A program made the position numbers and the translations under genes. This document shows positions 17,551-44,700 of a DNA stretch of 64,000 nucleotides, one piece after another. This DNA is from Scenedesmus sp. PABB004 (lineage: Eukaryota): the NCBI GenBank assembly GCA_014905635.1, contig JABVCE010000019.1, positions 620,001-684,000 of the forward strand, given 5' to 3'. Every line of letters starts with the position of its first letter. The first letter of the stretch is position 1. Below the pieces are notes generated by a model, which was given only the letters and a program-made list of their open reading frames with translations, searched no databases and was not told where the DNA came from.

Positions 17551-23936
<6,386 letters not shown>

Positions 23937-24389
23937 CACAGGGCGGCGGTGTTTGTTTTTTCTGATTCACCTGAGCCGTGCAGGGCTCCAACATGTGTGA
24001 GCAAACTGGGACGGGCGGCAGCGGCAGCAGTCACGAACGACCGAGGTGCGCGTCGCGGTTGGTCGTCGCCGAGGAGGCGGGGGGCCTGGTGTTTTGCTGG
24101 CGGTCGAGGCGCGCAGCTGGTGCAGGTCCTGCTCTGTTCTGTCTGTTGGCGTCGTGGTCGCATGGTCGCATGGTTGGCCTCTCTTGCAATGTGTGAGCTG
24201 CGCGCGGCCGGGGCGCGGGCGCGGCCACGGTCGGGCGGTGTTTGAGTTTTAGGCGATCGTGAGCGCGGTTTCTTCTCTCTTGTATGTTGCCGTCGTGTGA
24301 TCGCTTCGTTCTCTTGTGGTCGGTTGGTGTTGTGCGCGTTGGACTCGTCGGGCGTGAGCGCGCAGGGCTTTGTGGGCGCCGCGTCGTGA

Positions 24390-27152
24390 ATGAAGGTCCA
24401 GCTTCTCGCCCCGTGTCCGCGCATCCCAGGTAACGTTCCAAGCGCGCGCAGCGTCCCTCGAGCGCGTTGCTGCCGCCGCCGCCGCCGAGCGCGGCGCCGC
24501 GCTGCTGCGGCGCCGCGGCACCCCCCCGCAGCCGCCGGCTCGGCCCACGCCGCCTCGAAATGTAGCCGCGGTCCAGCGAGTGGAGCAAGCAGGCAGCGGG
24601 TGCGGTTCGTTGAGAGCGGGCCCGCAGCGGCGGCATGCCCGCCGTTCAGCGCCGCGCGCCGCAGGCTGGGCGCCGATCAAGCTGGAGCCGGGCGTGCCCC
24701 CTCCGCCCCACCCGGGCGTGGCCGCGGCAGCGGCGGCGGCGTTCGACGCGACCGCCGCGCTGGGACGCGCGGGCTGGACGCCGCCGGCCGAGCTGCCGGC
24801 CTCGCCACGGCCGCCGCCGGCGGCGGCGGCGGCCCCCGCCATGCAGCAGGGCGGCAAGAAGCGCCGCGCGGTGGGCGGCGAGGCGGTGGCGGAGGTGCTG
24901 CCGCACGACGCGCCGGGCGCAGCAGGCATGAATCTGGCACGCCAGCTGGTGCGCGCCGACGCGGCGTACCGGGTGAGCCGTTGGTTCGACTCGCAGCCGC
25001 TGACGGGAGGCATCGTTAAGGAGCCGGGGGGAGGTGCCTGGCGCGTGCCGATGCGCCAGGCGACCGACCTGGTGATGGCGGCCCCCGTGCTGCGCGGCGC
25101 GCAGCTCACCTACGCGCCGGGTGCGGCGCGCGCGGCCGCGTGGCCGCGCGGCCGCGCGTGCGCCGCACCGCACCCGAGCGCCCCGCGCCTCGCCTCACCG
25201 CCGCTGGCCCGGGGTCGCGCAGGCCGCCGCGTGGCGGGCGCCACGCCCGCCTGCTGCCACGGCGTCATCGAGAGCGGCGACTTGGAGAGCGAGGGCAACC
25301 CTGAGGCCTACAGCATCCGGCATGCGCGGCGGCGCGGCGGCGCGGCGGCGCGGCGGCGCAGCCCTGCAGCGTGGCCCTCCCTGGGGGCCTCCCGGGACGG
25401 GGCTAACAGCGCGTGTGCGCGCGCCACCCACGCCCGCGCGCCGCCACACCCACCCACCCACCCGCCCGTGCGCAGGTGCGTCGGCTGCGGCCTGAGCGGC
25501 CTCTCTCGCCACGGCTTTGAGGTGCACCTCGGCTCGCGCCTCAAGAACGCGCCGGCGCAGCTGTCCGTCGACGCGCTGGGCATGTCGCTCCAGGCGCGCG
25601 CCGGCGCGGCGGGCCGGCCAGGGCGGCAGCTGCAGCGCCGCGCCCCGGGGGCACGCGGGCGGCAGCCAGTGCGCTGGCGCGCGCTGGCCCACGCGGCGCC
25701 CCGCGCCGCGTGCGTCCGCCGCCCGCGGCGCAGGACCTGGTGACCCAGGTGGGCGCGGTCGACCTGTCGTTGGCGGCCTGCGTGTACTGCCGCACCGAGG
25801 ACAAGTCAGACGGCACGCTGCAGACGTGCCGCTCCTGCCCCGTGGCCTACCACGCGGGCTGCCTCGCGCGCGCCGCGCCGCGCGCGGCGCGGCCCCGCTC
25901 GCTGGACGACGCCGACACCTGCGCGAGCTGCGCCGACGCCGGCGCGTGCGCGGCGCACGGCTGCGCCTGGTGCGCGGCGCACGCGCCGGCGCCGCCCGAC
26001 CTGGACGCGCTGTGGGCGGCGCGGCGGGCGGAGCTTGACGCCGAGGTGGTCGGCGCCGCGGGCGGCCTGGGCGGCGACGGCGCCGACGCCGGCGGCAACG
26101 GCGCGCTCGCTGCAGCGCCGGCTGCAGCGTCGGCCACCGCCGCAGCTGGCGCCGGCGCGGCGGCCGCGCCCGCCCCGAGCGCGCGGCGGTGGCAGCGGCG
26201 AGCCGGCGGCGCCGCCGACGCCGCCGGGGCCGGGGCGGGCGCGGCCGGCAGGGCCCGGCTCGGCGCCAGCCGCCAGCTGACAGCGCAGCTCGGCGACGGC
26301 TGGTGGCACCAGCAGCTCGCCGGCGAGGTGCTGTGCGAGCCGCAGCAGGCGGCGCGCAGGCAGCGCCGCCAGGAGCGGCAGCTCCTGCCTGACCTGCCAA
26401 CCGGCGGCAGCGACTCGGAGGCATCGTCGGGCGAGGACGACGGCGGCCTGGAGGCGGACCAGCTGGAGGGCGAGGCGCTCGCGCCGCCGTGGGCGGCGGC
26501 CGCTGCTGAGGCGGCGGCCGCTGCTCATTCTGCTGCGACCGGCGGCGCGGCGAGCGGGGTCGGCGCGGGCGAGCCTGATCAGGCTCGCCGTCATGACGGC
26601 GTGCTGCAGCGGGCGCCGGCGTCGTCCGGCGGTGCGCCGCGGCGGGCGTCCCATGTGCCCGCCACGCCAGCGGCGGCAGGCACGCCCTGGCACGGCGCCC
26701 CGGCGGCCTGCAGCGCGCCGTCGTCGGCCCCGTCGGCAGCCGGCGCCGCGGCGGCGGTGCCGCCAGGGGCGCCGCCGCGGCCCGGGAGCTCGGCCGAGTC
26801 GGACGTCGACGTGCCGCAGCTGCCGCTGCTGGACACGCGCGACCAGGGCAGCGTGCTGGACACGGCGGCGGCCGTGACGCGGCTGCTGCAGCGCTTGGTC
26901 ACCGAGCGCGTGCTGGACGGGGGGCGCGAGGTGGCCATCATGCGCGCGGTGCGCGAGTGCTTCCGACAGCTGCGGACCGGCGCGCCGGGCGCGGCCGCCG
27001 CCGGGCCCGGCGGCGGCGACGCGCAGGCTGATCAGGCTCGGCTGATCGAGTGCGTGCTGACGCTCGGCGCGGTGCGCGCCATCCTGCGCGAGCGCGGCGC
27101 CGGCTGGGCGGCGGCGGCGGCGGTGGAGCTGGAGCAGCTACTGCCGGCGTGA
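24390..27152 (+). CDS. TDBD-like + extended PHD finger protein, paralogue 2 (start uncertain: 24390 via an intron, or 24841)
   Basis: VMAAPVLRGAQLTY...YSIRCVGCGLSGLSRHGFEVHLGSRLKNAPAQLSVDALGMSLQDL...CVYC...CRSCPVAYHAGC...CASC. Collinear with 5238-7827. GC donors at 25320 and 25594. Confidence 0.75.
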
Positions 27153-27663
27153 GCGCGCGTTGACCGGCCGGCGCGCGCAAGGCCGGGAGCGGGGGGCGCG
27201 TGCGAGGGGGCACATGCATGCCGCGCGTGGAGTTGCGCCGGCCAGGTCGGCGGCCGCGGTGACCGTTGCCGCCGCTCGCGCGCACGGCGGCGCCTCGGGG
27301 GTATGTTACACGGCGCGCTCGAGAGAAGAGAGAGACGCCCGCCCGCCCGCCCACATGCACCGCCTACCCTATACGCGCCCGCCGTGCCTCGCGCAACTGC
27401 GCGCGCCGCGCCGCGCTCGCTGCGCGGGCGGCCGCCCGCGCCAGCCGCCGCTGCTGCCGCGCGCGCCGCCACCGCTCCCCCGTGCCGCGCCGCTGCCCGG
27501 CGGCGGCGCTGCCCGCGCCGGGCGCGAGGTGGGGAGGGGGCGGAGAGAGAAGGAAGAGGAGGCCCGGCGAGGAGCGAGGCCGCCGCCACGCAGCGCGCCG
27601 CCCGCTGCTGGCCGGCGCGCCTCCGCCGGGCGCGGCGGCGCGGGCGCGCATGCACCTGCATGC

Positions 27664-27666
<3 letters not shown>

Positions 27667-27735
<69 letters not shown>
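27667..27735. repeat. (CCG)n trinucleotide run just 3' of the UBC stop
   Basis: More than 20 uninterrupted CCG units. Confidence 0.9.
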
Positions 27736-27736
<1 letters not shown>

Positions 27737-27760
27737 GCGGCGTGCCGCGGCGCGCGGCGC

Positions 27761-29060
<1,300 letters not shown>

Positions 29061-29510
29061 TCACGCCGGCGGCCCGGGCACGCCACCGGCCAAGAGCGCC
29101 GCGCCCCGCCGCCGCCGGCGCGCCGGCCGCGGGTCGGTTGCGCGGCGCGCAGCAGCGAGCGGCGGCGGGCGCTGAGGCGAGCGCCGCGGCGAGCGGCGGC
29201 GGCGACGCAGTCAGCGGTGGCCCCTGCGGCGTGGCCGGGGTGCGGCTCGGGTGGGCGCTGCGTCTGCGCCTGCGCGGCAGGCGCGGCAGGCGCGGCGCAC
29301 GCTGCAGCGCGAGCGGGCGGCGGGCGAACGCGTTGGTCTTATTGTTCCCCTCCGCTCCGCAAGAAAACAAAACAAGCAGGTCGCCGCTGGTCAACGCACG
29401 CGCTGGCGCTTTTTTGTTGTACACGCGCGCGGGCCCGGAGAGGCCGCGCAGCCCCGTTCCTCGCGCCTCCGCCGCCGCCCGCCGTCACGACCGCCGCCGG
29501 CTCCGTGAGC

Positions 29511-29856
29511 TCACGCGCTGGGCCAGCCGCTGGTCACGTCCTTGAACTCGGCGGGCAGCGACGCGAAGCTGCGCGCCGCGGCGGCAGCGGGGCGGTGGGC
29601 GGTGGGCGGCGCGAGGGGCGGTGCAGCCCTGGCGGCGGCTGCCGCGCGTGCTCGCGCGCGCGCTCGCGCGCACGCACCGCGCCGCGCCGACGCGCTTGCG
29701 CCAGGCAGCCGCGTCGCCGTGCTCGCCGCCGCCGCCGCGCTCCGCCGCGCCGAAGCTCCCGGCCGCCGAGTCGACGCTGTTGCGCCTGCTTTCCTCGCTG
29801 TCCATGCTGCTGCGGCGCTTGATGTCCTGCGGCGCGCTCGGCGGCGGTGCCTCCAT
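29511..29856 (-). CDS. 78-aa two-exon microprotein of unknown function
   Basis: Exons 29856-29678 and 29568-29511 joined by a GT-AG intron stay in frame: MEAPPPSAPQDIKRRSSMDSEESRRNSVDS...WRKRVGAARFASLPAEFKDVTSGWPSA*. Confidence 0.6.
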
Positions 29857-30240
29857 GGCGCGCGTGCTGTAGCGCGGCAGGACGGCAGCGAGCGGTTTCG
29901 GAGCTAGCCTGCAGCAATCGCGTGAGTGCGGGGGCACTTGGACTGCGCGCGGGACGATGCGGTGAGGCGCGGGCAGCAGGTTTCGGGACTCGAAATGACG
30001 AGGCGCTTTAGGCACGGCGCGCCGCGCCCAGCCTGCGGGCCCAGAGTGACGTTTGCGAGCTTTAGCGACCGCCGCGACCGCGCGCGCGACGCAGCGGGGA
30101 CGCGCGGCGGCAGCAGCAGCGGCGCGCGGCAGCGACGGTGTCGCTGCCCGCCCACCGCCGTCTAGCAGCAGCATCGCCAGCAGTCCAAAAGCAGCAGAAG
30201 CAGCAGCAGCAGCCGCGCGCCCCGGCGGCAGCGGCCCCCG

Positions 30241-33200
30241 ATGCCGGCGACGATCGTGCTGCCCGGCGCGGTGCGCGGCGCGGTCGTCACCCGCTTCCCG
30301 CCGGAGCCGTCGTGGCTGCTGGACGTGGGGCACTGCAAGGCGGCGCTCGTCAACGAGGCCCTGGCCGCGCAGTTTGAGGTCGGCGGCGCCCGCGGCGCCG
30401 GGGACCGCAGCACACCGCGCGCGCCGCTCGCGCAGCTGGTCAGGTCAGCCCCCCGCATGCCGTCTCCTGCCCGCCGCCAGGGCGCGTGGCTGCTGCGCTA
30501 CGACGACACCAACCCCCGTGCCTGCTCCGCAGCGTGCGTTGCGGCGTACGAGCAGGTGCGCCCGCGCGCCGGGCGCGCAATCGTGGACGCCCGCGCGGGC
30601 TGTCGCCTCGCGCCCCGCGCCCGCGCGCGACCCCCGCCCCGCCGGCCGGCCGCCGCCGCCACGCCCCGCCGGCCGGCCGCCGCCGCCACGCCCCTGCGCC
30701 GCCCCTGCGCCGCCCAGGACCTGCCCCTGCTGCGCCTGTGTCCGTCGGGTCGGAGCTTCGCGTCCGACTTCTTTGGCGCCATGGCCGCCGACGCGGGGCG
30801 CCTCATCGCGTGTGGGTTCCTCTACGCCGACGACACGCCCCTCGACCAGGTGGGTGGGTGGGTGGGTGGGTGGGTGGGTGGGTGGGTGGGTGGGTGGGTG
30901 GGTGGGTGGGTGGGTGGGTGGGTGGGTGGGTGGCTGTGCGCGTGGCTGTGCGTGTGCTTTGGTGGCGCTGGTGGGCGTGCTTGCATTTGAGGGGTTGAGG
31001 GGGCCTGGGGCTCGGCGGCGTGGTCCAGCCGCAAGCCCCCCCCTCCCGCCGCGCCGCGCCGCGCCGCGCCGCGCCGCACCGCGCCGCGCCGCGCCGCGCC
31101 GTGCCGCGCCGCCGCAGATGCGCGCGCAGCGCCTGGCCATGCAGGCCTCAACTGCGCGGGGGCGACCGGCCGCGGAGAGCCTCGCCGCGTGGCGGGAGAT
31201 GCAGGCGCGCGGCGTGCGGCGGTGCACAGCGCGCGGCACACAGCGCGCTTGGCGGGCGGCGGCGCCGCGCGGCGCTGCGTGCGCCGCGGTCACCACCACG
31301 CGCTCCGCGGCGCGTCGCACGCCGCCACGCACGCGTGCGCAGGCCGGCGCCGGGGGCTGGGTGCTGCGCATGGCGCTGGACCCGGGGTCGGAGAACGGCG
31401 CGCTGCGGGACCCGGTGGCATTTCGCGTCATAACAGACGCCCGGCACTTCCGCACCGGGGCGCGCCGCGCCGCGCGGCGGGTGGCGGCGCGCGCAGCCCC
31501 GGCCTCCCAGGCGGGCGGGGCCCCGCGCACGCGCCGGCGGCGCCGCCGAGGCCTCGCCCGTCACTTGAAGCCGGCGCCCCTCAACGCCCTGATGAGCCGT
31601 CGAGCCCCGCCCCCGCCCCCGCGCGCCCTGCAGGCTGTGAGTTTGCGGCGTACCCCACGTATGACTTTGCGGCGCCGTGGCTCGACAGCGCGCAGGGCGT
31701 GACACACGCGCTGCGCACGCTGGAATTTCGCGACCGCGACGATTTGTACGCGGCGGTGCAGGCGGTGCGCGCGCGCCCGGGGGCTCCGGGCCGCGCGCGC
31801 CGCGCGGCAGCGCCCGCAGCGGCCGCGGGGGCGGCGCCGCCGCCGGAGCCGCCGCGCACCGCCGCGCCGGCTCAACCCTCAACCCCCGCAGGCGCTGCTG
31901 CCGCTGCACCCTGGCTGGCGGGCGACGCAGATCTTTGAGTTTCCCCGCATCCACATGGCCCACACGCCGCAGGCGCGCGCGGCGCGCCGGCCCCGTGCGC
32001 GGTCTAGGCCACGCGCGGCTGCGCTGCGGTTTCGGCCACGCGCGACTGCGCCGCGCCGCGGCAGCGCGCGACGCGCGAGCCCCAGCGACGAGCGCCCCGC
32101 CGCCGTCACCGCCGCCGCCGGCGGCGCCGCGGCCGCGCAGGCCAAGGCGCACCAGCGCGCGCTGCTGGGCGCGGGGCTCGTCGCCGGCCCGGACGACCCG
32201 CGGCTGCCGACGCTGCGCGGCCTCATGCGCGGCGGCTGCCACCCGGACGCACTGCGGGCCTTCCTGCTCGAACAGGCGCGGCGGCGGCAGCGCGGCAGCG
32301 CGGCGCGGATGCGCGCGGGGCTTGGCTGGCCGCGCGCCGCCGCCCCCGCGCACGCACGCGCGTCCCCACCGGCCCAGGTGACGCCGGCGCGCAAGGAGAC
32401 CTACCACTCGTGGGACAAGCTCTGGACCCTCAACCGGTGCGGCGGCGGCGCGGCGGACAGGTCGATGCGCGCGGGGGGGGCTGGGGGTGGGGGCTCTGGG
32501 GGACCGCCGCCCGCCGACCACGCCGCCCCGCGGACCGTGCTTGCCCACGCTCAGGCGGCTGCTGGACCCGGTGGCCTCGCGGCACATGGCGGTGGCGGAC
32601 GGGGGTGCGCCCCAGCCGCGGGGAGGAGCCGCGGGCCACCGCCGCGGGCCCCTCCCTGCGTGCGCGCCGCGCCACTCCCCTGCGCGTGGCCGTCCGCGCC
32701 GCGCGCGCCGCGCCACTCCCCTGCGCGCGGCTGTCCGCGCCGCGCGCGCCGCAGGCCACGTGCTGCTGGCGCTCGCGGGCGGGCCGGCGGAGCCGGAGGC
32801 CGCCGAGGTGCCGTGGAAGCAGGGGCACGTCGCCCGCGTGGTGCGCTGGCGGGAGGTGTGGCTCGATGGCGACGACGCGCAGGTGGGCTGTGTGCGGCGC
32901 CGCGCCCCTGAGCCCCTGTGCTCGCTGAACCCTGTGAGCCCTGAGCCCTGAACCCCGTGCGCAGGACCTGGACGTCGGCGACGAGGTCACGCTGCTCGCC
33001 TGGGGCAACGCCGTCATCACCGCGGTCACGCGCGAGCAGCAGCAGCAGGAGCAGCAGCAGCAGCAGCAGCAGACGCAGGAGCAGCAGGAGCAGGTGCAGC
33101 TCTGCGGCGGAGGCGGAGGCGGCAGCGGCGGGGGCGGCAGCGGCGGGGGCGGCAGCGGCGGCGGACGGGTCGTGCGGCTCGCCGCGGCGCTCCGTCCCGG

Positions 33201-33877
33201 TGGCGACCCCAAAACCAGCAAGGCAAAGCTCCACTGGCTCCCTGCCCTGCCCGAGGTGCGCGCGCCGCGCCGCCCACCCGCCGTCGCGCGCGCTCCCGCC
33301 TCGCCGTTGTCCCCCGACGCCGCGCCGCGCCGCCGCGCCGCGGCGTCCGCAGCTGCTCGTGCCGCTGCGGCTCGTCTCCTTCTCGCCCTGCCTGACCGAG
33401 GAGCGCGCCGTGGACGAGACGGACGTGGTTGCCGCGTTTGACAGGGCCAGCCGGCGCGAGGCGCGCGCGTGGGGCGACCCGTCGCTGCTGCGCAGCGCGG
33501 TGCGCGGCGCGGTGGTGCAGCTGCAGCGCAAGGGGCTGTTCATCGTCGATGCGGTCACGCTCGCCGGCGACAGCGCCAGCGGCGGCGGCGGCGCCACGCG
33601 CGCTGGGCTGCTGGCCCCGGCCGGCGCCGGCGCGGCGCCCGCAGCCGCGGGCGGCCCGCCGCCGGTGCCGACCGGCGGCGAGCTGCTGCACCGCCCCGAC
33701 GGCGGCGCGCCGGCGGGCATGGTCGCTGCCGCGTCGGCCGCCGCGGCGCTGGCGCCGCGCGACGTGGCCGAGCTGACGTGCATCGCCATCCCGGACGGCC
33801 ACACCAAGCGCGGGCCCTGGGTGGGCAGCCGGCAGCGCGCGAGCGAGGCGGGCGCCGCGTGCGACGGGGCGCTGTGA
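30241..33877 (+). CDS. Eukaryotic-type glutamyl-tRNA synthetase paralogue with degenerate HIGH and KMSKS motifs, 13 exons
   Basis: VVTRFPPEPS, LRYDDTNP, NGALRDPV, YPTYDFAAPWLDSAQGVTHALR, DDPRLPTLRGL, WDKLWTLNR, GDEVTLLAWGN, VVQLQRKGLFIVD, IPDG: catalytic and anticodon-binding domains collinear with cytosolic GluRS. Confidence 0.9.
30849..30932. repeat. (GGGT)n tetranucleotide repeat at the 5' end of a GluRS-paralogue intron
   Basis: About 20 GGGT units starting at the GT donor (30850). Confidence 0.92.
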
Positions 33878-34037
33878 GCGCTCGGGCGCGCAACCTGTTG
33901 TGTGTTGCAACGTCGAGCCAAGCTCGGCCAGCCGTGCCCGCGCCCCACACTGCCACACCGCAACTCTTCATCAACCGGTCGATCAATCAATTGAAGCACT
34001 CGCCCAGCCCCCGCCCTCCCTCCCTCGCACGCCCAGC

Positions 34038-37000
34038 TCAGCGCAGCGCCGCCGCGGGCGTCGGCCGCGCGCGCGCCGCGCCCGCCGCCGCGACGCGCGC
34101 CGTCGCGACCGCCTTGTCCACGGCCTTGATGGCCGCGAACTGGAAGCCCATGAACCGCACCGCGTCGTCGACGCTGCCCACCAGCAGCAGCGCGCGCGCG
34201 CTCGCGGCGGCCGTGCCGACGTCGCCGTCGTCCGCGCCGGCGCCGGCGCCGCCGCCGCGCGGCCGGAACGTGAGCGACGGCGCCGGCGGCGGCGCGCCGG
34301 CGGCGGCGCTCAGCTGCGCGCAGAGCTCGGCGAGCGCGGCGTTGAAGGTCCCGCGCACGAGCTGGTGCTCGCCCAGGATCTGCGCGTGCAGCGCGTGCCG
34401 CGTGCGCGACATCACCGCATACATCGCCACGCGCTGCTCCTCCAGCTGCGACAGCTGCGCCGCGGCCGGCGGGCGGGCGGGCGGCGTCGGCGGGCGGGGT
34501 CGGCGGGCGGGGTGTGCTGGGCCAGGGCGGGCGGGCGGGCGGGTGCTGTCGCTGAGGCGCGGCCCGGCCGGCGCGGGGCTGCGTGCCTGCAGCCCCAGCC
34601 CCGCAGGCCTCCCGCGCGCGCGCGCGCGCGTGCACGAGCGCCGGCGCCGGCGCCGCCGGTGGCGCACCAGGACGTTGACGGCGTGCACGCTGCGCGGGCT
34701 GGGGCGCGCGAGGGCGCCTCCGACCGCGGCGACGAGCAGGCCGAGCAGGCCAAACAGCCGGACGACCTCGGGGCCGAGGGGGACGCCATAGACAATGAAA
34801 TGACACCCGCTGAAGCCGCCTGGCGCCGGGGGCGGGAGTCGGGGACGGAGGGCGGCGGAGGCGGGGGCGGGGAGGAGGGGTGGAGGCGCGGCGGCGCCAG
34901 GGCGCGCGGCTGTGTTGGCGGTCGACCGGCGCGCGGCTGTGTTGGCGCCCCGCACCGGCGATGTTGGGCGGCGTCATCGCGCTCTGCAGCGCCGCGAGGC
35001 GGTCGAGCAGCGACAGCAGCGCCGACAGCAGCGCCGGGACGACCTGCGCCCGGGGTTGGCGCGGGCGCGGCGCGGTGGGCGGGCACGCGGCGGGCGCGGC
35101 GGCGCGGCCGCCGCGGCACGGCCGCCGCGGTGCCGCCCGCCGCCGGTCGTCGCACCGGCGGCGTCGCGAGCACGCCGCGGCTCCACGCGACGGTGTCGCG
35201 CTGCAGTGACGCCTGCACCTCCACGAGTGGCCCCGCGACGAGCGCCTGCAGCGCGGCGGGGCTGACCGGGTCGCGCGCCGCCGCCGCCGCCATGGAGGGC
35301 GCGGCCGTGAGCGCGGCGCCGCCGCGGCCGCTGCCGTCGCCGCCCCCGGCGCCGCCGCCGAGGGGGCTGTCAAAGTCGGGAAAGGCAAAGGCGGCGGCGT
35401 CCACCAGCGAGGCCGCCATCTTGCGCGCGGCCGCTACCTCGCCCGCGCTGCGCGGCGCGTGGGCGGCGCGGCGCGTGAGCGCGGCGGGCGAGCGGGGCGG
35501 CGCGGCGGGCGAGCGCGCGGGCCCCTCCTGGGGGCGCCGCCCACCTGTAGGTCAGGCAGCCGCGGCACCTGCTCGCCGCGTCCAGGTCGGGCGCGGCGTC
35601 GCCGCCGCGCCGCGCCGAGCCCACGCCCGCCGCGACCTTGGCGACCGCGCCGAGCGCGCCGCCGGCGCCGCTGCCGCCGCTGCGTGGCGGCGCGTCGTCG
35701 GGGCCGGCCGGCGCGGGGCAGGGCAGCGCGAACGACGCGACCGCGTCGGCGCCCTCCTGGAAGCAGCGCGCGTAGGTCTGGACCATCAGCCGCATCGCCG
35801 CCTCGTAGGTGTCGGCCATCACAGCGAGTGCCCAGTCGCCTGGGGGGCGGGGGGGGGGGGGGGGCGGCGAGCGAGTCGGGCGGGTGGGCGAGCTGGGCGG
35901 CGACCGCGGCGGCGGCGGCGGCGGCGGCGGCGCGAACGGGGGCCCGCGGGCCGTGCTGGAGAGCGCGGCGCGGCGCGGCGCGGCGCGGCGCTCACTCGTG
36001 TACCAGGGCAGTAGCAGGTGGCAGACCAGCGCGCTCACCAGCACGCCTGCGCGGGGCAGGCAGAGGGCGCGCGCCGGGCGCTCGGCGCGGCGCGAGACGC
36101 GGGCCGCGGCCGGCGCCGCGCCGCGGCCGCGCGCCGGCGCCGCTCGCCCCGCGCCCGGGCGTGCGCGGCGGCGCACCGGCGACGACCGAGACGACGCGCG
36201 CCGCCGCGACGGCGACGCTGCCGGGGCCGCAGCACTGGCAGCACACGAGCGCCGAGAGCGTCATGAGGGAGAGCGTCACCGCGACGCGCAGGCGCGTCGG
36301 CCCGAGCAGCCCCACCACCAGGGACGCGGCGGCCATGATGCCACCGAGGGCGACCGGCGACGCCGCGGTCGCGGGGTGCAGCATCGCCGCGTAGCCGAGC
36401 GCGCCGCCGGCGAGCGTGCCGGCGAGCCAGAAGCACACCTGGCGGGCGTGCGGGGCGCCGCGCGCGGGGTCGCGGTCAGCGAGGCTTCAGGGGCTCCCTG
36501 ATGAAGGCCCCCCGGCTGTGGCCCTCGGAACGCGCCCCGCCGCGCAGCTCCGCCCCCGTGCGGGCCAGCCAGCGGCCGCTCCACATGCGGCGCGGCGCGG
36601 CGTGGCGCGGCGGCGCGCGGAGGCGCAGCGGCGCGCGCGGCGCGGCGCGGTGGCGCGCGGCGGCGCGGCGGCGGGGACGCGCCCACGTGCCTTTGTGAGC
36701 GTCGCCTCGACGCGCTCGCTCATGGCGAGGCTGGCGGCGATGTAGCCGAACGCGGGCGACACGCGCACGAGGGGCGGGCTGGTGTGCATGCTCGCGAGCG
36801 TGGCGACGAGGCAGGCGGTCAGCACGAGCCAGTACTTGGCGCCCGCCTTGGTTTAGGGGGTTTAGGGGGTTTAGGGGTTTAGGGTTGAGGAGGTGCGTGA
36901 GCGTGTGAGTGAGAGGCAGGGCCAGAGGCGGGGCAGAGGCAGAGGCAGAGGCAGCCGGGCGGCGGTGCTGGCGTGGGCGCGGCGGGCGCGGCGACACAGC

Positions 37001-40000
37001 GCGGCTGTCGCGCGCTGCGTAGCCCAGCGTGCGCCGCGGGACCCACCTGCACGCGGCGGCAGCGCACGAGATCGGCCAGCCCTGCGATGCGCCGCGGCGG
37101 CGAATGAGCGTGCGTGCGTGCGTGCATGGGAGTGTCCGTGCGTGCCGGCAGGCAGCGCACGTGCGCTGCCGCGCCCGCCCCGCGCGCGCACCTGCCCAGC
37201 CCTGCCGCGCCGCGGTGGCCAGCACGCCGCCGGGGCCGAGCGTGCGGCGCCAGTTGGCCGCCAGCATCGCGCCGCCCGCGAGCGGCGCGAGCGGCTTGGC
37301 CCACGCGAGCCAGCGCGCGGGCGCGGTCGCGGGGCGCGGCCGCGCAGACCGCGGCGCTCGTGGCGCGCTCGAGGGCGTCCAGGGTATCAATCAGCGCGTT
37401 GGTCAGGGACCAGGCAAACATGAGGTGCCGCACCTGCGCCCCACGCGGACACACAGCGGCGCGGCGCGTGGGCCGCGGCGGTAGCACGGCGGCACGGTGC
37501 GGGGGCGCACGGCGCCGGCGCCGCAGCCGCAGCGCCCGCCGCCTCGGCCGCGCCTGCGTGAGCGCCGGCACGACCGCCACGCCGGCGTCGGCGCCCGGGC
37601 GCGTGAGCGAGCCCCAGTGCCGCTCCTGCTCGGTCGCGATCTGCGTCGCCAGCTCCGCCTTGGCCTGCGCCCAGCTGCGGCCAAACGTGCCGACCAGGCC
37701 GCAGAAGGGCCCGTCGGCGGCAACAAACTTGGCCCGCCCCGCCCGCACGACGCCGCGGCGCAGGTGGGGGCGGCCATAGCCGCGCAGCGCGTCGGCCTGC
37801 GGCGGAGGCGGACGGGCGGGCGAGTGGACGGGCGGGCGGGTGGGCGGCCGAGTGGACGACAGGCAGGCGAGCGGGCGGGCGATGCCGGCGGACGATGCCG
37901 CCGTGGGGCTCCCGGCGCGCGCGCGGCGCGGCGCGCGGCGCGCGCGCGGCGGCGGCGCGCGCTGCAGCGCGAGGCTCGCTGCCGCTGTGCTGTACACGAT
38001 CTGCAGCGCGTCGAGCATGGGCGGCGAGAAGGCGTAGCCCGTGCCCTGCAGCGAGCCGCCGTCCTCGATGATCGCCTCCAGCGCGCTCAGCCTGGCCGGG
38101 GGGGGGGGGGGGGTTGCGGGGCGGCAGAGCGGGGCGGGGCGGGGCGGGGCGGGGCGGGGCGGGGCAGGCCTTGGAGGGCGCGGGAGGAGGCGCGGGCCGG
38201 CGCGCCGCCGAGGCCGCCGAGGGCGGGGCCGCCGCTGGCTGCCGCGCGCGCACCGCGAGAGCAGCAGGGTGAGCACGTTGACGACGCGGCCCACGCGGCC
38301 GCGTCAAACCACGCCGCCGCGCCGCCGCGCATCCACTGCGGCTCCACCGCCGCCGCGCCCAGCAGCATCTGCGGAGCGCGCGCGCGCGCGGGCGGGCGGG
38401 CGTGTGCGTCTCGGGGCGGCCGCGCCGCGCAGCCGGCGCCGTCCCGCGCTGCGCCGCCAGCGCTTCCGCGCGCGCCGCGCGCGCGCACCCGCGCGGCCGC
38501 GAGGCGCGGCCGCAGCGAGGCGACGGGCGCCTCGGGCAGGGGGCAGCGGTACGCGCCCGGCGCGGGCGGGGGGCGGGGGTCGGTGTTGCGCCGCATGACG
38601 TTGCGCCACTCCTCGAGGGTCAGACTCTCTGCGACCACCAGCCCGCTGCCGGCGTCGCCCAGGGCGTAGAGACTCTCAGCCTTGGCCAGTGCCTCCACCT
38701 CGCGCGCGGCCGCCTCGTCGAGCGGGACCGGCCCCGGGCCCCCGCCGCCCGCGCCGGCGCCGCCGGGCGCGGCGGCCGCTCCGCACGGCCGCTCCGCCGC
38801 CGCGGCAAAGGGCGAGGCGCGCGCCGCGCCCGGGGGCGGCGCCGACTCCCACGCGGCCAGCGGCGCCTGCACGGACGGCAGCACCTGCGCGGCCGGCGGC
38901 GCCTCCGGGGCGGCGCGACCGCGTTGTCGCGCGTGGGGCCCGCGCCGCCGCAGCCGAAGCCCTCGCCCCGGGCCATCGGCCGGAACAGCCGCGCGGCGTA
39001 GCGGCTCGTGGCCAGGCCGGCGGCGGCCGCGACGCCGGCGAGCGTGTCCTGCACCTGCGATGCGCAGCCGGCGCGGCGCGCTCGGCGGCGGCGCCGCGCG
39101 CCGCGGCGGCGGCGCTGCGCGGCGCGGCCGGGCCTGGCGGTGCTGCGCGGCGCGTGGCGGCGCTGCGCGCGGCGTGCGCGGCGCGCCTCCTCCGACGCAA
39201 GCGTGGGCGCGATGAGCCCCGCACCACCGCAGCGATGATGGCGGCCGCCACCGACGCGAGCAGGACGCCGCCGGCGGTGATCCACACCTGCGCGGTGGCG
39301 GCGGCGGCGGCGCGGCGCGTCAGACGGCGCCGCGGCGGGCGGGCGCGCCCTGCGTTGCGGCGCTGCGCGTTGCGGCGCGCGCACTGACGTGGGCGACGTC
39401 GTGGAAGCGCCAGGTGGAGATGCAGACCATGCCGTAGGCCAGGCAGCATGACATGCCCTGGCTCCACAGCAGCGGCGGCGACGCCGCGACGCGGTTGGGG
39501 ACGAGCAGGGTCAGCCCCGCCGGGCCCAGCACGCACAGCAGCGCCGTCGACGCGACGCCGGGGCCGGGCGCCTTGCTGATGCTGCTCTGCGGAGGGCGTC
39601 GTGCGGCGCGCGGCGGCGCGGGGGCGTCGTACGGCGGCGCGCGGCAGTCGCGTGGCGGCGGTCGTGGCGGCGGCGGTCAGCCGCCCGCGCTCACCACGAC
39701 CGAGCCGCAGAGCCCGCCCGTCCAGATCGCGCCCAGCAGCGCCGCGCCGCTGTTGAGGCGCGCGCCTGCGGGGCGGCGCGGGGCCCGAGTGAGCGCGCGG
39801 CCGCCGCGCACGCACGCGCACGCGCACGCGCCGCGCCGCAGCGCCCCGCGGCGGGCGCCGCCGCCGCGCACCGAGCGTCGGGTTGGGGCTGCCCATGACC
39901 GCGACGACCAGGAAGAGCGTGGGCGTGATGCAGGACTGGGGGAACGCGATGGGCCGCACAAAGCTGAACAGGCAGGCCACGAGCACGCCGACCGAGATCT

Positions 40001-40151
40001 GCAGCGCGCTCTGCACGCACGCCGCCGCGGTCGGCCCCGCCGGCGGCGCCGCGGTGGGCCGGCTGCCGCCGCCGCGCCCCGCCGCCAGCGCTTTCGCCTT
40101 GGGCTCGCATGGCTTGGCCGCCGGGGCGGCGCTTTTTGCAGCTGTGGTCAT
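34038..40151 (-). CDS. Large ALMT/FUSC (aromatic acid exporter)-like membrane transporter with two hydrophobic modules
   Basis: Module 1 VQSALQISVGVLVACLFSFV...VMGSPNPTLGARL...GAIWTGGLCG. Module 2 AKYWLVLTACLVATL...YIAASLAMSERVEATLTKVCFWLAGTLAGGALGY...AARVVSVVAGVLVSALVCHLLLPWYT, the FUSC/ALMT R..GT..GG pattern in diverged form. Many introns and several apparent 1-nt frameshifts. Confidence 0.7.
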
Positions 40152-40449
40152 CTCTAAGCGTTTGCAGGTCGGCAGCAGCGCGTCGCTGCTGCTGCCGCCG
40201 CCGCCTGGCCGGCGCAGCTGGGCGCGACCGCACCAGGGGCTCGCAGCGCGCCGCGCGCGGCTGGGCGCGGCGCTGGGGTCGCGCGTGCTGCTGCGACGCG
40301 CCGCGGCAGCAGCAGCGGTGCGGCGGAGCAGGTGTGGCGGCGCGGCCGTCGCTGCCGCGGGCCGCGGCGCTGAAGCTGCCGTAGGGCGTGCCGGGCGCGC
40401 GCTGTTGTCGCACCACGCACTCACTACCGCGCCGTCACGACGCCGGGGT

Positions 40450-41311
40450 TCAGTCGTCCGGCTCGCGCCCGCCGCCGCCACCGGCCTCCAGCCCAACTCC
40501 CCGCCCGGGCGCAGCAGGCCGAAGACCAGGGAGTCGACGAAGCGCCCGTCCTTGAACGCGGCGGCCGCCAGGCGGCCCTCGGCCGCAAAGCCCACGCGCG
40601 CGAGCAGCGCCGAGCTGGGCGCGTTCCAGGCGTAAACCAGCGCCTCCAGCCGCGCGCAGTCGGGGAAGCCGGCCGGCGAGAAGGCGTGGCTCACAAATGC
40701 GCGCACCGCCGCGCCGCCGACGCCGCGGCCCCAGTGCTCGCGCCCGAGCCAGAAGCCCAGCTCCCGCGTGTGGCGCTGCACGCCACACCGGCGCGCCGCG
40801 CCGATGCCGCCGACGACGCCCGCGCCGCCGCGCAGCTCGATCGCGAGCTGGCTGTGCCGCGCGGGCTGGCCCGGCGCCGGCGGCGCGTCCGGCGTGAGGC
40901 AAACGTCGCGTATCCACTGCCGCGCCAGCTCCACCGTGAAGGGGTGTTGCCAGCGGTCGGAGCAGTTTATCCACACCTCGCTGCAGGCAGCGGCATCGGC
41001 GTGCGTGTGTGTGTGTGTGTGTGGGGGGGGGCAGCGGCGGCGGCGGCGGCGGCAGCGGCAGCGCGGCGGCGGCAGCGGCGGCACCGGCTCTTGCGGGCGG
41101 TGACGCTGCCGCCCGGCCGCGCTCTCCCCCGCGGAGCGGCAGCGCTTGAGCGAGGCAGCAGCACCCACCGGTCGCTGGCGTGGCGCGCAAAGGCCTCGGC
41201 GTCGTCCAGCCGCCACGGCCGCAGCCGGCCGACCGCGCCGCTGCCGCTGCTGAACGCCACGGCGCCGGAGCCGTCTTCCTCGCTGTCCCAGTCGCTGCTC
41301 GGATCCGCCAT
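40450..41311 (-). CDS. GNAT family N-acetyltransferase (RimJ/RimL-like), 2 exons; stop position uncertain
   Basis: RLRPWRLDDAEAFARHA..., ELGFWLGREHWGRGVG, RLEALVYAWNAPSSALLARVGFAAEGRL...KDGRFVDSLVFGLL. Intron 41168-40981. Confidence 0.92.
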
Positions 41312-41790
41312 CACCCCTCTGACGCAGGGGGGGGGGCGGAGAGCGGGCACTGCGCCGGCCGCGGCGACGAGCGTCACTCGACGCCTGACAGCTGACAGCC
41401 CTACCGCGCCTCGCCCCAACCCAAGTGGGAGGATCGGGGTGTTGCCGTGCGCCGCTGCCAGCGGCAACGGAACATGAGTGGCCCTCTGCGCGGCTGCAGC
41501 GGCCACCCGCGCCCGCCGGGGCGGCAAGTGATCTCAACCTGGCGCGCGCGCCGCCGCGCCCGCCGCCCGCCGGCCATCCTGTGCGGCCCGCCGGCCCGGC
41601 GCCGCGCCCCGCCGCGGGCCGCCGGCGCGCCAGCGCCAACATGGAGACGACAACGCCGCGCCCGTAAGGCGCGCCGCCCGCGCCGCGCCCGCGCCCCGCC
41701 GCCGCCGCCGGGCGGGGGCTCGTTATTCCGCGCCCGCCGCGCCCCTCGCACCCCGGCGCCCTCCCGCCGCAGCCCCGCGCGCCGCGCCGC

Positions 41791-44700
41791 TCATTGGCTG
41801 GCGCCCCGGCGCCGCCGGCGCCGCCGTCCGCCGCTGGCGCCGCCGCCCGCTGCCGCCGGCGTCCTTGTTGAGGGACTCGCCGATGCGCATGGAGGCGTCG
41901 CTCAGGGCCTTGACCTTGGCCGCAGGTCATCCAGATCCTCACCCTGGCGCGGGCACGGCACGGCACGGCGGGGGAGCGGGGGGGGGGGGGGGGGAGGGGG
42001 GGGGCGTCAGCGCCGGCGCCAGGCTCGCGCCGGCGCGCGGCCAGCCCGTCCACGCAGCCCCAGCCCCGGCGCGGCGCGGGCGCCCCTGGGTCGGTCCCGG
42101 GCGCCGCCGCGGCCTAGGGCCTAAACCGCAGGCCTGAACCTCCCCCGCACCTGCTGCGCGGCCTTGACGTCACCGAGGGCCTTGTTGATGTCGTCCACCA
42201 CCGCCTGCGGCAGCTTGTCCTGCAAGCAGCGCGGCGCGCGGTGCACGCGCGGCGGCGTGAGTGTGTGTGTGTGTGTGCCTGTGCGCGCGTCGGCCCTGCC
42301 GCCGCCCCCTCCCTCGCCGCGTCCCCCTCGCTCAGCGCGCGCCCCCGGCGCCTGTGCAGTCCTGGCCCGACCCCCCTCCTGCGGTCCCTTTGAACCCCTT
42401 GTGCCCTCAAACCCCCCTTGAATCCCCTGGGCCCCCCCGTGCCCCCTAAAACCCCTAAACCAATGCCCCCTGGGCCCCCTCCCGCACCTTGTACTCGGCG
42501 AGGCTCTTCTCCACGCTGTAGGCCAGCGTGTCGGCCTCGTTGCGCGCCTCAATCAGCGCCTGGGGTGTGTGTGTGCGTGTGCGTGTGTGTGTGTGTGGGG
42601 GGGGGGCATCGGGCAGCCGCGGCGGGCACACGGGCGGCGGGCAGAGGGCGGCGCGCGGGGCGGCGCGGCGCGGCGCCGCCGCACCTTGCGGCTCGCGTCG
42701 GCCGAGGCGTAGGCCTCGGCGTCGCGGACCATCTGCTGGATCTGGTCCTCGCTCAGCCCGCCTGGGGGCGGGGTTTAGGGGGGGGGGAGCAGGGTTTAGG
42801 GGCGGGTTCAGGAAAGGAATCGAGGGGGTGTGGGGGTGAGAGGGGCGCGGCGCGCGCGGCGGCGGCCCGCGCGCGGCGGCCCGCGCCGCCGCGAGTCCGT
42901 CCATGCGTGGCGCGGGCGCTGGTCTGCCTCACCGCTGGTCTGGATGCGGATGGACTGCTCCTTGTTGGTCGCCTTGTCCTTGGCCGAGACGTGGACGATG
43001 CCGTTGGCGTCGATGTCAAACGTCACCTCGATCTGGGGGTTTAGGGTTGAGGGGGGTTGAGGGGGGAGGGGCAGGCGCATACGCACGCGCACGCCCAGGC
43101 CGCACAGCCGCGCGCACACGCAGCCACACGTACACAGCCACGCGCGCGCAAGCGCAGCGCCGCGCACCTGGGGCACGCCGCGGGGCGCGGGCGGCACGCC
43201 CACGAGGTCAAACTGGCCCAGCAGCTTGTTGTCGGCCGCCATCTCGCGCTCGCCCTGGAAGACCTTGATGCCGACCTGGCGGGCGGGGTGTAGGGTTTAG
43301 GGGGATGGGGGCAGGGTGTAGGGTTGAGCGTTAAGAGGGAGGGGGGCAGGGTTCAGGGGGGGGGGGGGGGTGTGAGGGGGGCTGCATGTCGAGGGCGCCA
43401 GGGGCCGGCCGCGCGTGATCCGTCCCTCCCTCCCTCTGCCGCCCGCGCACGCGCCCCCTCCTCCCTCCCACACAAAACACGCGCGTGCAGCCCCCACCTG
43501 GGTCTGGTTGTCGGCGGCGGTGGAGAAGACCTGGGACTTCTTGGTGGGGATGGTGGTGTTGCGGCCGATCATGCGCGTGAACACGCCGCCGAGCGTCTCA
43601 ATGCCCAGGCTCAGCGGCGTCACGTCCAGCAGCAGGATGTCCTTCACGTCGCCGCGCAGCACGCCGCCCTGCGGGGTTTAGGGTGCGTGGGGGGCAGGGC
43701 AGGGTTTAGGGCGCGTGTGGGGCAGGGCAGGGTTCAGGGTGCGTGCGTGCGCCGGGCGCGGGCGCGGGCGCGGGGAGGCGTCGGTGCGGGCTGCGCGGTG
43801 CGCCGCAGCGGAGACGCCCAGACGCCCAGCGCCCCCCGCCTCCCCCGGCTCGCACACCCACCCACGCACGCACGCAGCCGCCCCAACCAACTGCGCAGCG
43901 CTCAGCCGCGCCCACCTGGATCGCCGCGCCCATGGCGACGACCTCGTCGGGGTTGACGCCGCGGCTGGGGTCGCGCGAAAAGATGGCCTTGACGATCTCG
44001 TGCACGCGCGGCATGCGGGTCATGCCGCCCACGAGCAGCACCTCGTGCACGTCCGCCGCGCTCACGCCTGACGGCGGCGGGGTTGGGTTTGGGGAGGGTG
44101 AGGGGGGGGAGTGAGGGGGCGAGGGTGTTGGGAGGGGGCGAGGGTGTTGGGCGGAGGGGGCGCGCGGGAGGGCGCGGGGCGGGGTGCGCGCGGGGGGGCG
44201 CGGGGCGCCGTGCCCGCTGCGCCGGAGCAGCCTCCTGCAAGCGCGCAGCGCGCGGCGTGCGCGCCTGCTGAGCCGCGGTGCGTGCCAAGTGGTACCGCGG
44301 CTCAAGCAGGCGCGCACGCCGCGCGCCGGCGCGCCGAGTGCTGCGCCGCTGCCGCCGGCGGCGGCGCACGCCAAACCAAACGGCCCCGTGAGCCCCCCTC
44401 AGCCCTAAACCCTAAAACGACCCCTCCAAAACCTCGAAAACCCCCTCCAAAACCCTGGCGCGCCTGCGTCTTTCATGCACTGTATGCAGGGCGCCTTGGT
44501 GCGCTCGAGCAGGTCGCCGACGAGGCTCTCCAGCTTGGCCCTGCGGGGCGCAGGGGGATGTGCGGGGCGGGGGAGGGGGGGGGGGCAGCGGGTCGGGGGG
44601 AGGGAGGGAAGGCGGGATGCCCCCCCGGCTGCAGCTGCCTCGCACACACGCACACACGCACACACACGCACACACAACACACAGATGGCAGCAGCACTCA

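Follow-up and report, generated by a model that had tools for sequence, protein, structure and literature searches.

The window analyzed here, a 64,000-nucleotide stretch of Scenedesmus sp. PABB004 (contig JABVCE010000019.1, positions 620,001 to 684,000 of the forward strand), carries at 30241-33877 on the plus strand a gene resembling that of a eukaryotic cytosolic glutamyl-tRNA synthetase (GluRS). Its translated exon pieces match PF00749, which is the catalytic domain in class I Glu/Gln synthetases. The exons were modeled by eye and then checked with tblastn against orthologous proteins, and the resulting model begins with an ATG at 30241, ends with a TGA at 33875-33877, and has 13 exons, with a stop-free coding sequence of 1950 nt and a protein of 649 amino acids (aa). 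A preliminary description of the sequence had likewise spliced 13 exons into an open GluRS-like protein, and the orthologue-guided model bears this out. Because the G+C content is ~80% throughout the window and 20 kb of it (22000-42000) hold 118 stop-free open reading frames (ORFs) of at least 120 aa on the two strands, an open frame is uninformative at this locus and ab initio gene models are fragile. The real support for the gene is the conservation of its orthologues together with codon periodicity: G+C content at the three codon positions (GC1/GC2/GC3) is 0.79/0.56/0.94 in the exons, compared with a flat 0.84-0.85 in every frame of the introns.

The encoded protein is altered in the two ATP-binding motifs of class I synthetases, HIGH and KMSKS. 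The canonical P-S-G-[YF]-L-H-I-G-H is replaced by P-S-W-L-L-D-V-G-H (30307-30333), and T-V-L-S-K-R-K is replaced by T-P-Q/A-K-A-H, which is split between exons 7 and 8 (31964-31972 and 32141-32152) and has the same spacing as T-V-L-S-K-R-K in the canonical GluRS of Scenedesmus sp. PABB004. Where the HIGH signature reads H-[IVLM]-G-H, the window protein has D-V-G-H and its orthologues have D-L-G-H or D-I-G-H. From the KMSKS-type loop, [LMI]-S-K-R-K, P-Q-A-K-A-H keeps only the Lys aligned with Lys270 of glutaminyl-tRNA synthetase (GlnRS), and the Ser, Arg, and Lys around that residue, which are invariant in 32 of 32 canonical sequences, are replaced. The substitutions are themselves shared: all orthologues have the motifs S-W-x-L-D-x-G-H-C, T-P-Q-A-K, and G-P-x-D-P-R, and residues D28, G30, H31, C32, and K258 are invariant in four members from the Sphaeropleales. 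D-x-G-H and the Lys are also retained in a divergent relative, P0354.

The paralogues without exception keep 115 of the 180 alignment columns that are at least 90% conserved in the 32 canonical GluRS; the other 65 are changed. The changed columns concentrate at HIGH (Gly25 to Trp, His28 to Asp, Ala32 to Cys), just after D-D-T-N-P (where canonical Lys60 and Glu61 are not retained), and in the KMSKS loop and the helix beyond it (Leu256 to Gln, Ser257 to Ala, and replacement of Arg259, Lys260, Leu261, Trp263, and Phe264). Elsewhere, Pro replaces Trp273 in G-W-D-D-P-R, and Phe replaces Tyr217. Of the GluRS and GlnRS relatives that we fetched, 304 have a parsable HIGH motif, which reads D-x-G-H in 5 and H-x-G-H in 299, and G-P-x-D-P-R occurs in 6 of 290; all of the sequences with either variant are family members. 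The preliminary description had reported both replacements at aligned spacing and the retention of R-F-P-P-E-P, D-D-T-N-P, Y-P-T-Y-D-F, and T-H-A-L-R, all of which we located at the expected spacing. Its statement that both ATP motifs were lost is correct in that both are altered but is too strong, given that neither the second HIGH His nor the Lys aligned with Lys270 varies. The alignments indicate that the motifs were remodeled and then frozen rather than simply lost.

The residues that surround the amino acid and contact the tRNA were compared using Escherichia coli GlnRS numbering, transferred via HMMER alignments to GlnRS chains, for which the chain index plus 7 reproduces Arg30 and Cys229. 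Roles in GlnRS are also ascribed to His40, His43, Lys270, and Asp235 (the acceptor-stem Asp). The paralogues retain R18, E22, S24, D54/D55, Y192/Y195, R213, E216, D219, K258, R330, Q557, and R560, which map to GlnRS Arg30, Cys229 (Arg, the GluRS state), Asp235, Lys270, Arg341, Gln517, and Arg520; His43 is also kept. The Arg of R-F-P-P-E-P, the Asp of D-D-T-N-P, the Tyr of Y-P-T-Y-D-F, and the Arg of H-A-L-R, all part of the glutamate pocket, are present; each of these residues is invariant across the 37 aligned sequences or at least across the paralogues. In GlnRS, in which Cys229 and His215 are conserved, the residues that recognize the amino acid have been described (PMC2978374). Because the paralogue has Arg at the Cys229 position and a small residue at the His215 position (Ala, or Cys in some orthologues, in the alignment to 1NYL), its pocket is a glutamate pocket of the GluRS type and not of the GlnRS type. 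In the GlnRS complex, anticodon base U35 is read by Arg341, Gln517, and Arg520, which archaeal GluRS also conserve (PMC2978374). With the pocket residues, this Arg/Gln/Arg triad, and the anticodon-binding domains all present, the earlier suggestion that the amino acid pocket and the tRNA-binding domains were kept stands.

Relatives were found by a word-indexed search with the stretch encoded by exons 1-3 and then with a three-protein HMMER profile. The product of the window gene is deposited as KAF8059742.1 (P0001, 750 aa, "glutamate--tRNA ligase [Scenedesmus sp. PABB004]"). Orthologues with the same motif changes are found in a Monoraphidium minutum metagenome-assembled genome (P0002, 645 aa) and in Scenedesmus sp. 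NREL 46B-D3 (P0003, 722 aa). In a collection clustered at 90% identity, only these three proteins (1173-1286 bits) scored above canonical GluRS (at most 497 bits) with the family profile, and among 1.84 billion cluster representatives, P0001 (1172 bits) and P0128 (631 bits) were followed by ordinary GluRS from 403 bits. P0128 is a 303-aa fragment that is 85% identical to P0003, has the same motif changes, and comes from the assembly of a public sequencing run with contigs of no more than 1197 nt. It is uninterrupted across seven intron positions of window exons 1-8, a hint, although not proof, that it derives from a spliced transcript. A divergent member, P0233 (288 bits), and its longer cluster mate P0354 come from metagenome assemblies and were recognized by S-F-P-I-D-L-G-H, V-P-L-D-K, and G-P-S-D-P-R. 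Their tree tip measures 4.9 changes per site, and they have a 40-residue Ala-rich N-terminal extension that is absent from the Sphaeropleales proteins. A metagenome scan with P0354 recovered a 7.3-kb contig (L001, GC ~71%) whose first part (L001:4-585) holds the last 194 codons; when the family alignment was used instead, 214 stretches fitted the pattern and none of them was confirmed, and a look-up in the ESM Atlas returned generic GluRS/GlnRS clusters only. The family occurs in Sphaeropleales (Scenedesmaceae and Selenastraceae), with a more divergent relative in a GC-rich metagenome organism.

A search of named database proteins with canonical chlorophyte GluRS identified a canonical cytosolic enzyme on other contigs in all three named species (P0051, 732 aa, in Scenedesmus sp. 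PABB004; P0059 in Scenedesmus sp. NREL 46B-D3; P0066 in M. minutum), each with H-I-G-H and L-S-K-R-K. The window gene is therefore not the sole cytosolic GluRS of its host. Over the 499 columns that are ungapped in all six proteins (three paralogues and three canonical enzymes), paralogue pairs are 66-69% identical, compared with 71-80% for canonical pairs from the same species; in the catalytic domain, the values are 71-72% and 76-87%. Within one species, paralogue and canonical enzyme are 40-43% identical. The preliminary description had argued for a maintained paralogue, and its argument is upheld by conservation among orthologues near the level of a housekeeping gene, by the sharing of the substitutions among Sphaeropleales (P0002, P0003, and fragment P0128), and by the separate canonical enzyme P0051.

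In quick maximum-likelihood trees, the family forms one clade inside the chlorophyte cytosolic GluRS (Shimodaira-Hasegawa-like approximate likelihood ratio test [SH-aLRT], 99-100). Its stem measures 2.2-3.6 changes per site and is followed by tips of 0.44-0.55, compared with 0.05-0.35 for the corresponding canonical tips, a pattern that suggests a burst of change and then constraint. Unconstrained trees place the family outside the canonical clade of core chlorophytes (SH-aLRT, 89 and 94), but a duplication inside the group of Scenedesmaceae and Selenastraceae was not rejected (log-likelihood difference, 2.6; approximately unbiased test, P = 0.315) with a tree from which P0128 and P0354 were left out.

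By sequence and by fold, the paralogue is a member of the Glu/Gln synthetase superfamily. P0002 has matches to PF00749 (4.4e-57, covering profile positions 2-312 of 314) and to PF03950 (4.5e-08); P0001 matches PF00749, PF03950, and, weakly, PF20974. The catalytic domain begins at residue 15, after only 14 residues, whereas canonical P0051 has ~220 extra N-terminal residues with an Arc1p_N-like match. No glutathione S-transferase (GST)/Arc1p-like N-terminal domain was found in the window protein, in agreement with the preliminary description. An AlphaFold2 model of P0002, built with the 37-sequence alignment, has a mean predicted local distance difference test score of 84.9 and a predicted template modeling (TM) score of 0.83, with low confidence only in two inserts (residues 412-466 and ~581-612) and the tail. 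The closest Foldseek matches are chicken EARS1 (7WRS; E = 5e-54, TM score of 0.90) and Plasmodium falciparum GluRS, with TM scores of 0.88-0.90 when normalized by target, followed by GlnRS structures at 0.81-0.83. Sequence matches in the PDB have the same order, with E values of 6e-90 for GluRS (7WRS) and 2.6e-57 for GlnRS. The protein is accordingly predicted to fold as a complete GluRS, in which a catalytic Rossmann domain is joined by the two anticodon-binding barrels. The two inserts correspond to 33034-33165 (Gln/Gly-rich) and ~33557-33781 (Ala/Gly/Pro-rich) of the window. They are family specific and stand at the same sites in all orthologues, and they are unrelated in sequence and length (poly-Gln/Gly in the window gene).

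We tentatively propose, at slightly short of an even chance, that the gene encodes a selectively maintained, neofunctionalized paralogue of the green-algal cytosolic GluRS that acts as an ATP-independent tRNA(Glu)- or Glu-tRNA(Glu)-binding protein. The nucleotide site has been rebuilt, with Asp in place of the first HIGH His, Trp in place of the Gly three residues earlier, Pro in place of the Trp of G-W-D-D-P-R, and Ala and uncharged or His residues in place of the Ser, Arg, and Lys near the KMSKS lysine. Together, these changes would remove a net of about three positive charges where the phosphates of ATP and pyrophosphate sit. Given such a loss at the triphosphate/pyrophosphate site, ATP-dependent activation is probably lost or very weak, and Glu-AMP would no longer be formed from ATP. 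The protein would grip tRNA(Glu) by its anticodon and acceptor stem with the glutamyl group in the pocket, in a product-like binding mode in which the ligand of the pocket may be free Glu or Glu esterified to A76, and it may sense, sequester, or hand over tRNA(Glu). The cyclodipeptide synthases offer a precedent (PMC3105412). Because the GST-like domain is missing and there is no space for a transit peptide, the protein is probably free in the cytosol.

Several points weigh against this proposal. The charge argument is drawn from aligned residues and not from coordinates. Active class I enzymes tolerate odd motifs, such as T-I-G-N in TrpRS and the forms of ArgRS without KMSKS lysines; because of this tolerance, and because the family shows no variation in the second HIGH His or in the Lys at the position of E. 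coli GlnRS Lys270, some residual or altered adenylation may persist. The anticodon-binding half of the paralogues is 59-64% identical, less than the 71-72% of the catalytic domain, as is also the case for the canonical enzyme. From the better conservation of the catalytic domain, it can be argued that the site is still in use, which suits a passive binder no better than an enzyme. The gene model is also imperfect: the introns after exons 5, 7, and 8 have GC donors in it, and the exon 5/6 junction is ambiguous, as no GT donor matches the spacing of the orthologues.

The conserved site might serve new chemistry, namely, that of a Glu-tRNA(Glu)-dependent glutamyl transferase or deacylase, in which glutamyl-A76 would occupy the old pocket and Asp28, His31, and Lys258, or a bound metal, would pass Glu to another acceptor. 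The invariance of the remodeled residues in the four Sphaeropleales members and the retention of D-x-G-H and Lys in P0354 agree with such a function, as do the more conserved catalytic domain and the retained glutamate pocket and tRNA contacts. There are precedents in the cyclodipeptide synthases, which use aminoacyl-tRNA without HIGH or KMSKS (PMC3105412), and in SbzA, an IleRS homologue that transfers Ile from Ile-tRNA (PMC9437257). A high-affinity binder would show equal conservation, however, and neither an acceptor substrate nor a partner gene nor a conserved nucleophile came to light; the neighboring genes, encoding a ubiquitin-conjugating enzyme and a GNAT acetyltransferase, give no hint of a pathway. 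We regard this explanation as unlikely, although a real contender. Somewhat more doubtful still is its specific form, in which a hitherto unrecognized family of eukaryotic, full-length-GluRS enzymes would dispense with ATP and use Glu-tRNA(Glu) as a glutamyl donor (or hydrolyze it), with the frozen Asp-x-Gly-His and Lys as the new catalytic center. If true, it would be the first synthetase-derived tRNA-dependent glutamyl transferase in eukaryotes.

We consider it improbable that the protein is a working second cytosolic GluRS isozyme with unorthodox motifs, perhaps for a tRNA subset or for stress. Duplicated active aminoacyl-tRNA synthetases (aaRS) in special roles are common (PMC9437257), and the paralogue keeps the second HIGH His, the Lys270-aligned lysine, all examined glutamate-pocket and tRNA-recognition residues, and, as modeled, an intact fold. 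Yet the replacement of the HIGH His by Asp and of Gly by Trp, together with the loss of the KMSKS Ser, Arg, and Lys, is seen in none of the other parsable GluRS/GlnRS relatives that we fetched, the post-duplication stem is long, and the paralogue has lost the GST-like domain, by which eukaryotic GluRS is tied to its partners. If the enzyme were still active, Asp could substitute for the first His of HIGH. A shift toward glutamine or tRNA(Gln) is very improbable. Here the preliminary description had pointed to a GlnRS-type T-L-E-F; this sequence is present and is that of E. coli GlnRS at the same place, and one GlnRS-like match, P0263, likewise has Cys immediately following HIGH. T-L-E-F is the sole GlnRS-like touch, and a canonical GluRS, P0008, has T-I-E-Y. 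The likeness stops short of the pocket, where the residues at the Cys229 and His215 positions (PMC2978374) point to GluRS, as do the closer PDB matches to GluRS and the nesting of the family among green-algal GluRS. Hardly credible, finally, is a decaying pseudogene or an annotation artifact of 80% GC. Stop-free frames are ubiquitous in the window, three junctions need GC donors or stay ambiguous, and the deposited model differs from ours at three or four places; against this, orthologues in at least three species are 66-69% identical with no frame disruption, near the level of the essential paralogue, the motif substitutions themselves are conserved, GC is strongly uneven over codon positions in exons and flat in introns, and the predicted fold has high confidence.

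The binding protein that we favor would differ from known systems in several ways. Eukaryotic cytosolic GluRS (PF00749, PF03950, and PF20974; 7WRS and 7WAI) is homologous to it across the catalytic and anticodon-binding body and has the same glutamate-pocket residues and U35-reading triad. The algal paralogue differs in D-x-G-H after Trp, in P-Q-A-K-x and G-P-x-D-P-R, in 65 of the 180 near-invariant columns, in the absence of the GST/Arc1p-like domain, and in having, within its C-terminal half, two long inserts that are predicted to be disordered. Glu-Q-RS (YadB), the sole paralogue given for GluRS in Table 1 of a 2022 review of aaRS paralogues (PMC9437257), is likewise derived from GluRS and has a function outside protein synthesis. 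YadB is bacterial, consists of the catalytic domain only, activates Glu, and charges the queuosine of tRNA(Asp) (PMC9437257), whereas the algal protein is a full-length protein of the eukaryotic type whose ATP motifs are altered. Identity with YadB was rejected because anticodon-binding domains are present and the match to 1NZJ is marginal (E = 7e-4). The cyclodipeptide synthases AlbC and Rv2275 have a class I aaRS-like Rossmann fold with the amino acid pocket kept, lack HIGH and KMSKS, and use pre-charged aminoacyl-tRNA (PMC3105412), but they are small, of TyrRS/TrpRS-like ancestry, and without a C-terminal tRNA-binding domain. The algal protein retains the entire GluRS body and some of each motif; it resembles the cyclodipeptide synthases in its logic and is not one of them. 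SLIMP, a SerRS-like protein, is also an aaRS paralogue with an ablated or altered active site that is kept for tRNA binding or regulation (PMC10570016). Pseudo-synthetases of this type are of class II ancestry and are subunits or domains of larger assemblies, and their pockets are ablated, unlike that of the algal protein, which is conserved. Further pseudo-synthetases are the HisRS-like domain of GCN2 and HisZ. GluRS is monomeric.

In the full texts that were searched, a scope that leaves out most subscription journals, no eukaryotic GluRS-like protein with these motifs is described. The proteins form a small, conserved, apparently undescribed family deposited under an ordinary glutamate-tRNA ligase name, and the database name "glutamate--tRNA ligase" probably overstates their function and is likely to propagate. 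Paralogues of aaRS have repeatedly turned into regulators, tRNA modifiers, or tRNA-dependent transferases. The algal family offers a natural experiment in which a full-length eukaryotic GluRS kept its pocket and tRNA contacts while its ATP site was rewritten and has since stayed the same in different algal families. If the protein binds Glu-tRNA(Glu), this would point to a new use or control of that tRNA in the algal cytosol.

The exons, all on the plus strand, carry the features described above as follows. Exon 1 (30241-30378) encodes R-F-P-P-E-P (30292-30309) and, after S-W, D-V-G-H (30322-30333), and ends at a GT donor with the AAQFE/GAW junction of the orthologues. D-D-T-N-P (30502-30516) lies in exon 2 (30481-30555), which is followed by exon 3 (30718-30849) and exon 4 (31118-31213), where a GT donor at 31214 restores the canonical spacing. 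The 3′ end of exon 5 (31343-31459) is uncertain: its donor may be a GC at 31460 or 31464 or the GT donor of the deposited model farther downstream, which adds 34 aa. Exon 6 (31642-31764, with 31634 as a possible start) encodes Y-P-T-Y-D-F (31651-31668) and T-H-A-L-R-T-L-E-F (31702-31728) with the Glu-specifying Arg. Exon 7 (31892-31972) ends in T-P-Q (31964-31972), with which the KMSKS equivalent begins, and exon 8 (32141-32275) begins with A-K-A-H (32141-32152), includes the conserved Lys (32144-32146), and continues to G-P-D-D-P-R. The junction between these two exons is identical in the deposited model and compatible with all orthologues. The GC donors after exons 7 and 8 have the sequence CAG/GCGCG, and intron 8 can alternatively be read through, in frame, into exon 9 (32378-32436), which encodes VTPARKETYHSWDKLWTLN-. 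In exon 10 (32555-32604), the Arg at 32580-32582 aligns with the U35 reader Arg341 of E. coli GlnRS. Exon 11 (32755-32882) encodes W-K-Q-G-H where the canonical enzyme has P-x-H-K-K. The low-complexity insert at 33034-33165, Gln-rich and then Gly/Ser-rich, falls in exon 12 (32965-33255), at the site of the orthologues' disordered insert. Exon 13 (33353-33877) encodes the Gln (33518-33520) and Arg (33527-33529) aligned with GlnRS Gln517 and Arg520, the Ala/Gly/Pro-rich insert (~33557-33781), I-P-D-G, and the stop. In all, GT donors serve nine of the 12 introns.

The deposited KAF8059742.1 treats as coding the intervals 30379-30480 (intron 1), ~31460-31633 (the region of intron 5), and 32276-32377 (intron 8), and its exon 4 stops 9 nt early, at a GC donor.

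Upstream of the GluRS-like gene and divergent to it lies a gene for a ubiquitin-conjugating enzyme (PF00179; ~27761-29060, minus strand) with at least three exons. A GNAT acetyltransferase domain (PF13302, E = 1.2e-14) is encoded at ~40587-41003 inside a long minus-strand open frame. Among 48 neighboring ORFs, 3 belong to the ubiquitin-conjugating enzyme gene and 1 to the GNAT gene, and neither suggests a functional link. ARAGORN called a tRNA-Arg (gcg) at 31243-31323 on the plus strand, in intron 4, and Rfam had no match at the gathering threshold anywhere in the window; because Rfam gives it no support, the call is probably a GC-rich false positive. The introns also contain repeats: a (GGGT)n microsatellite at 30850-30926 in intron 3, whose start coincides with the donor of exon 3, a (CGCGCCG)n-like run at ~31045-31115 in the same intron ahead of the exon 4 acceptor, and a duplicated block of ~29 nt at ~30640-30697 in intron 2.

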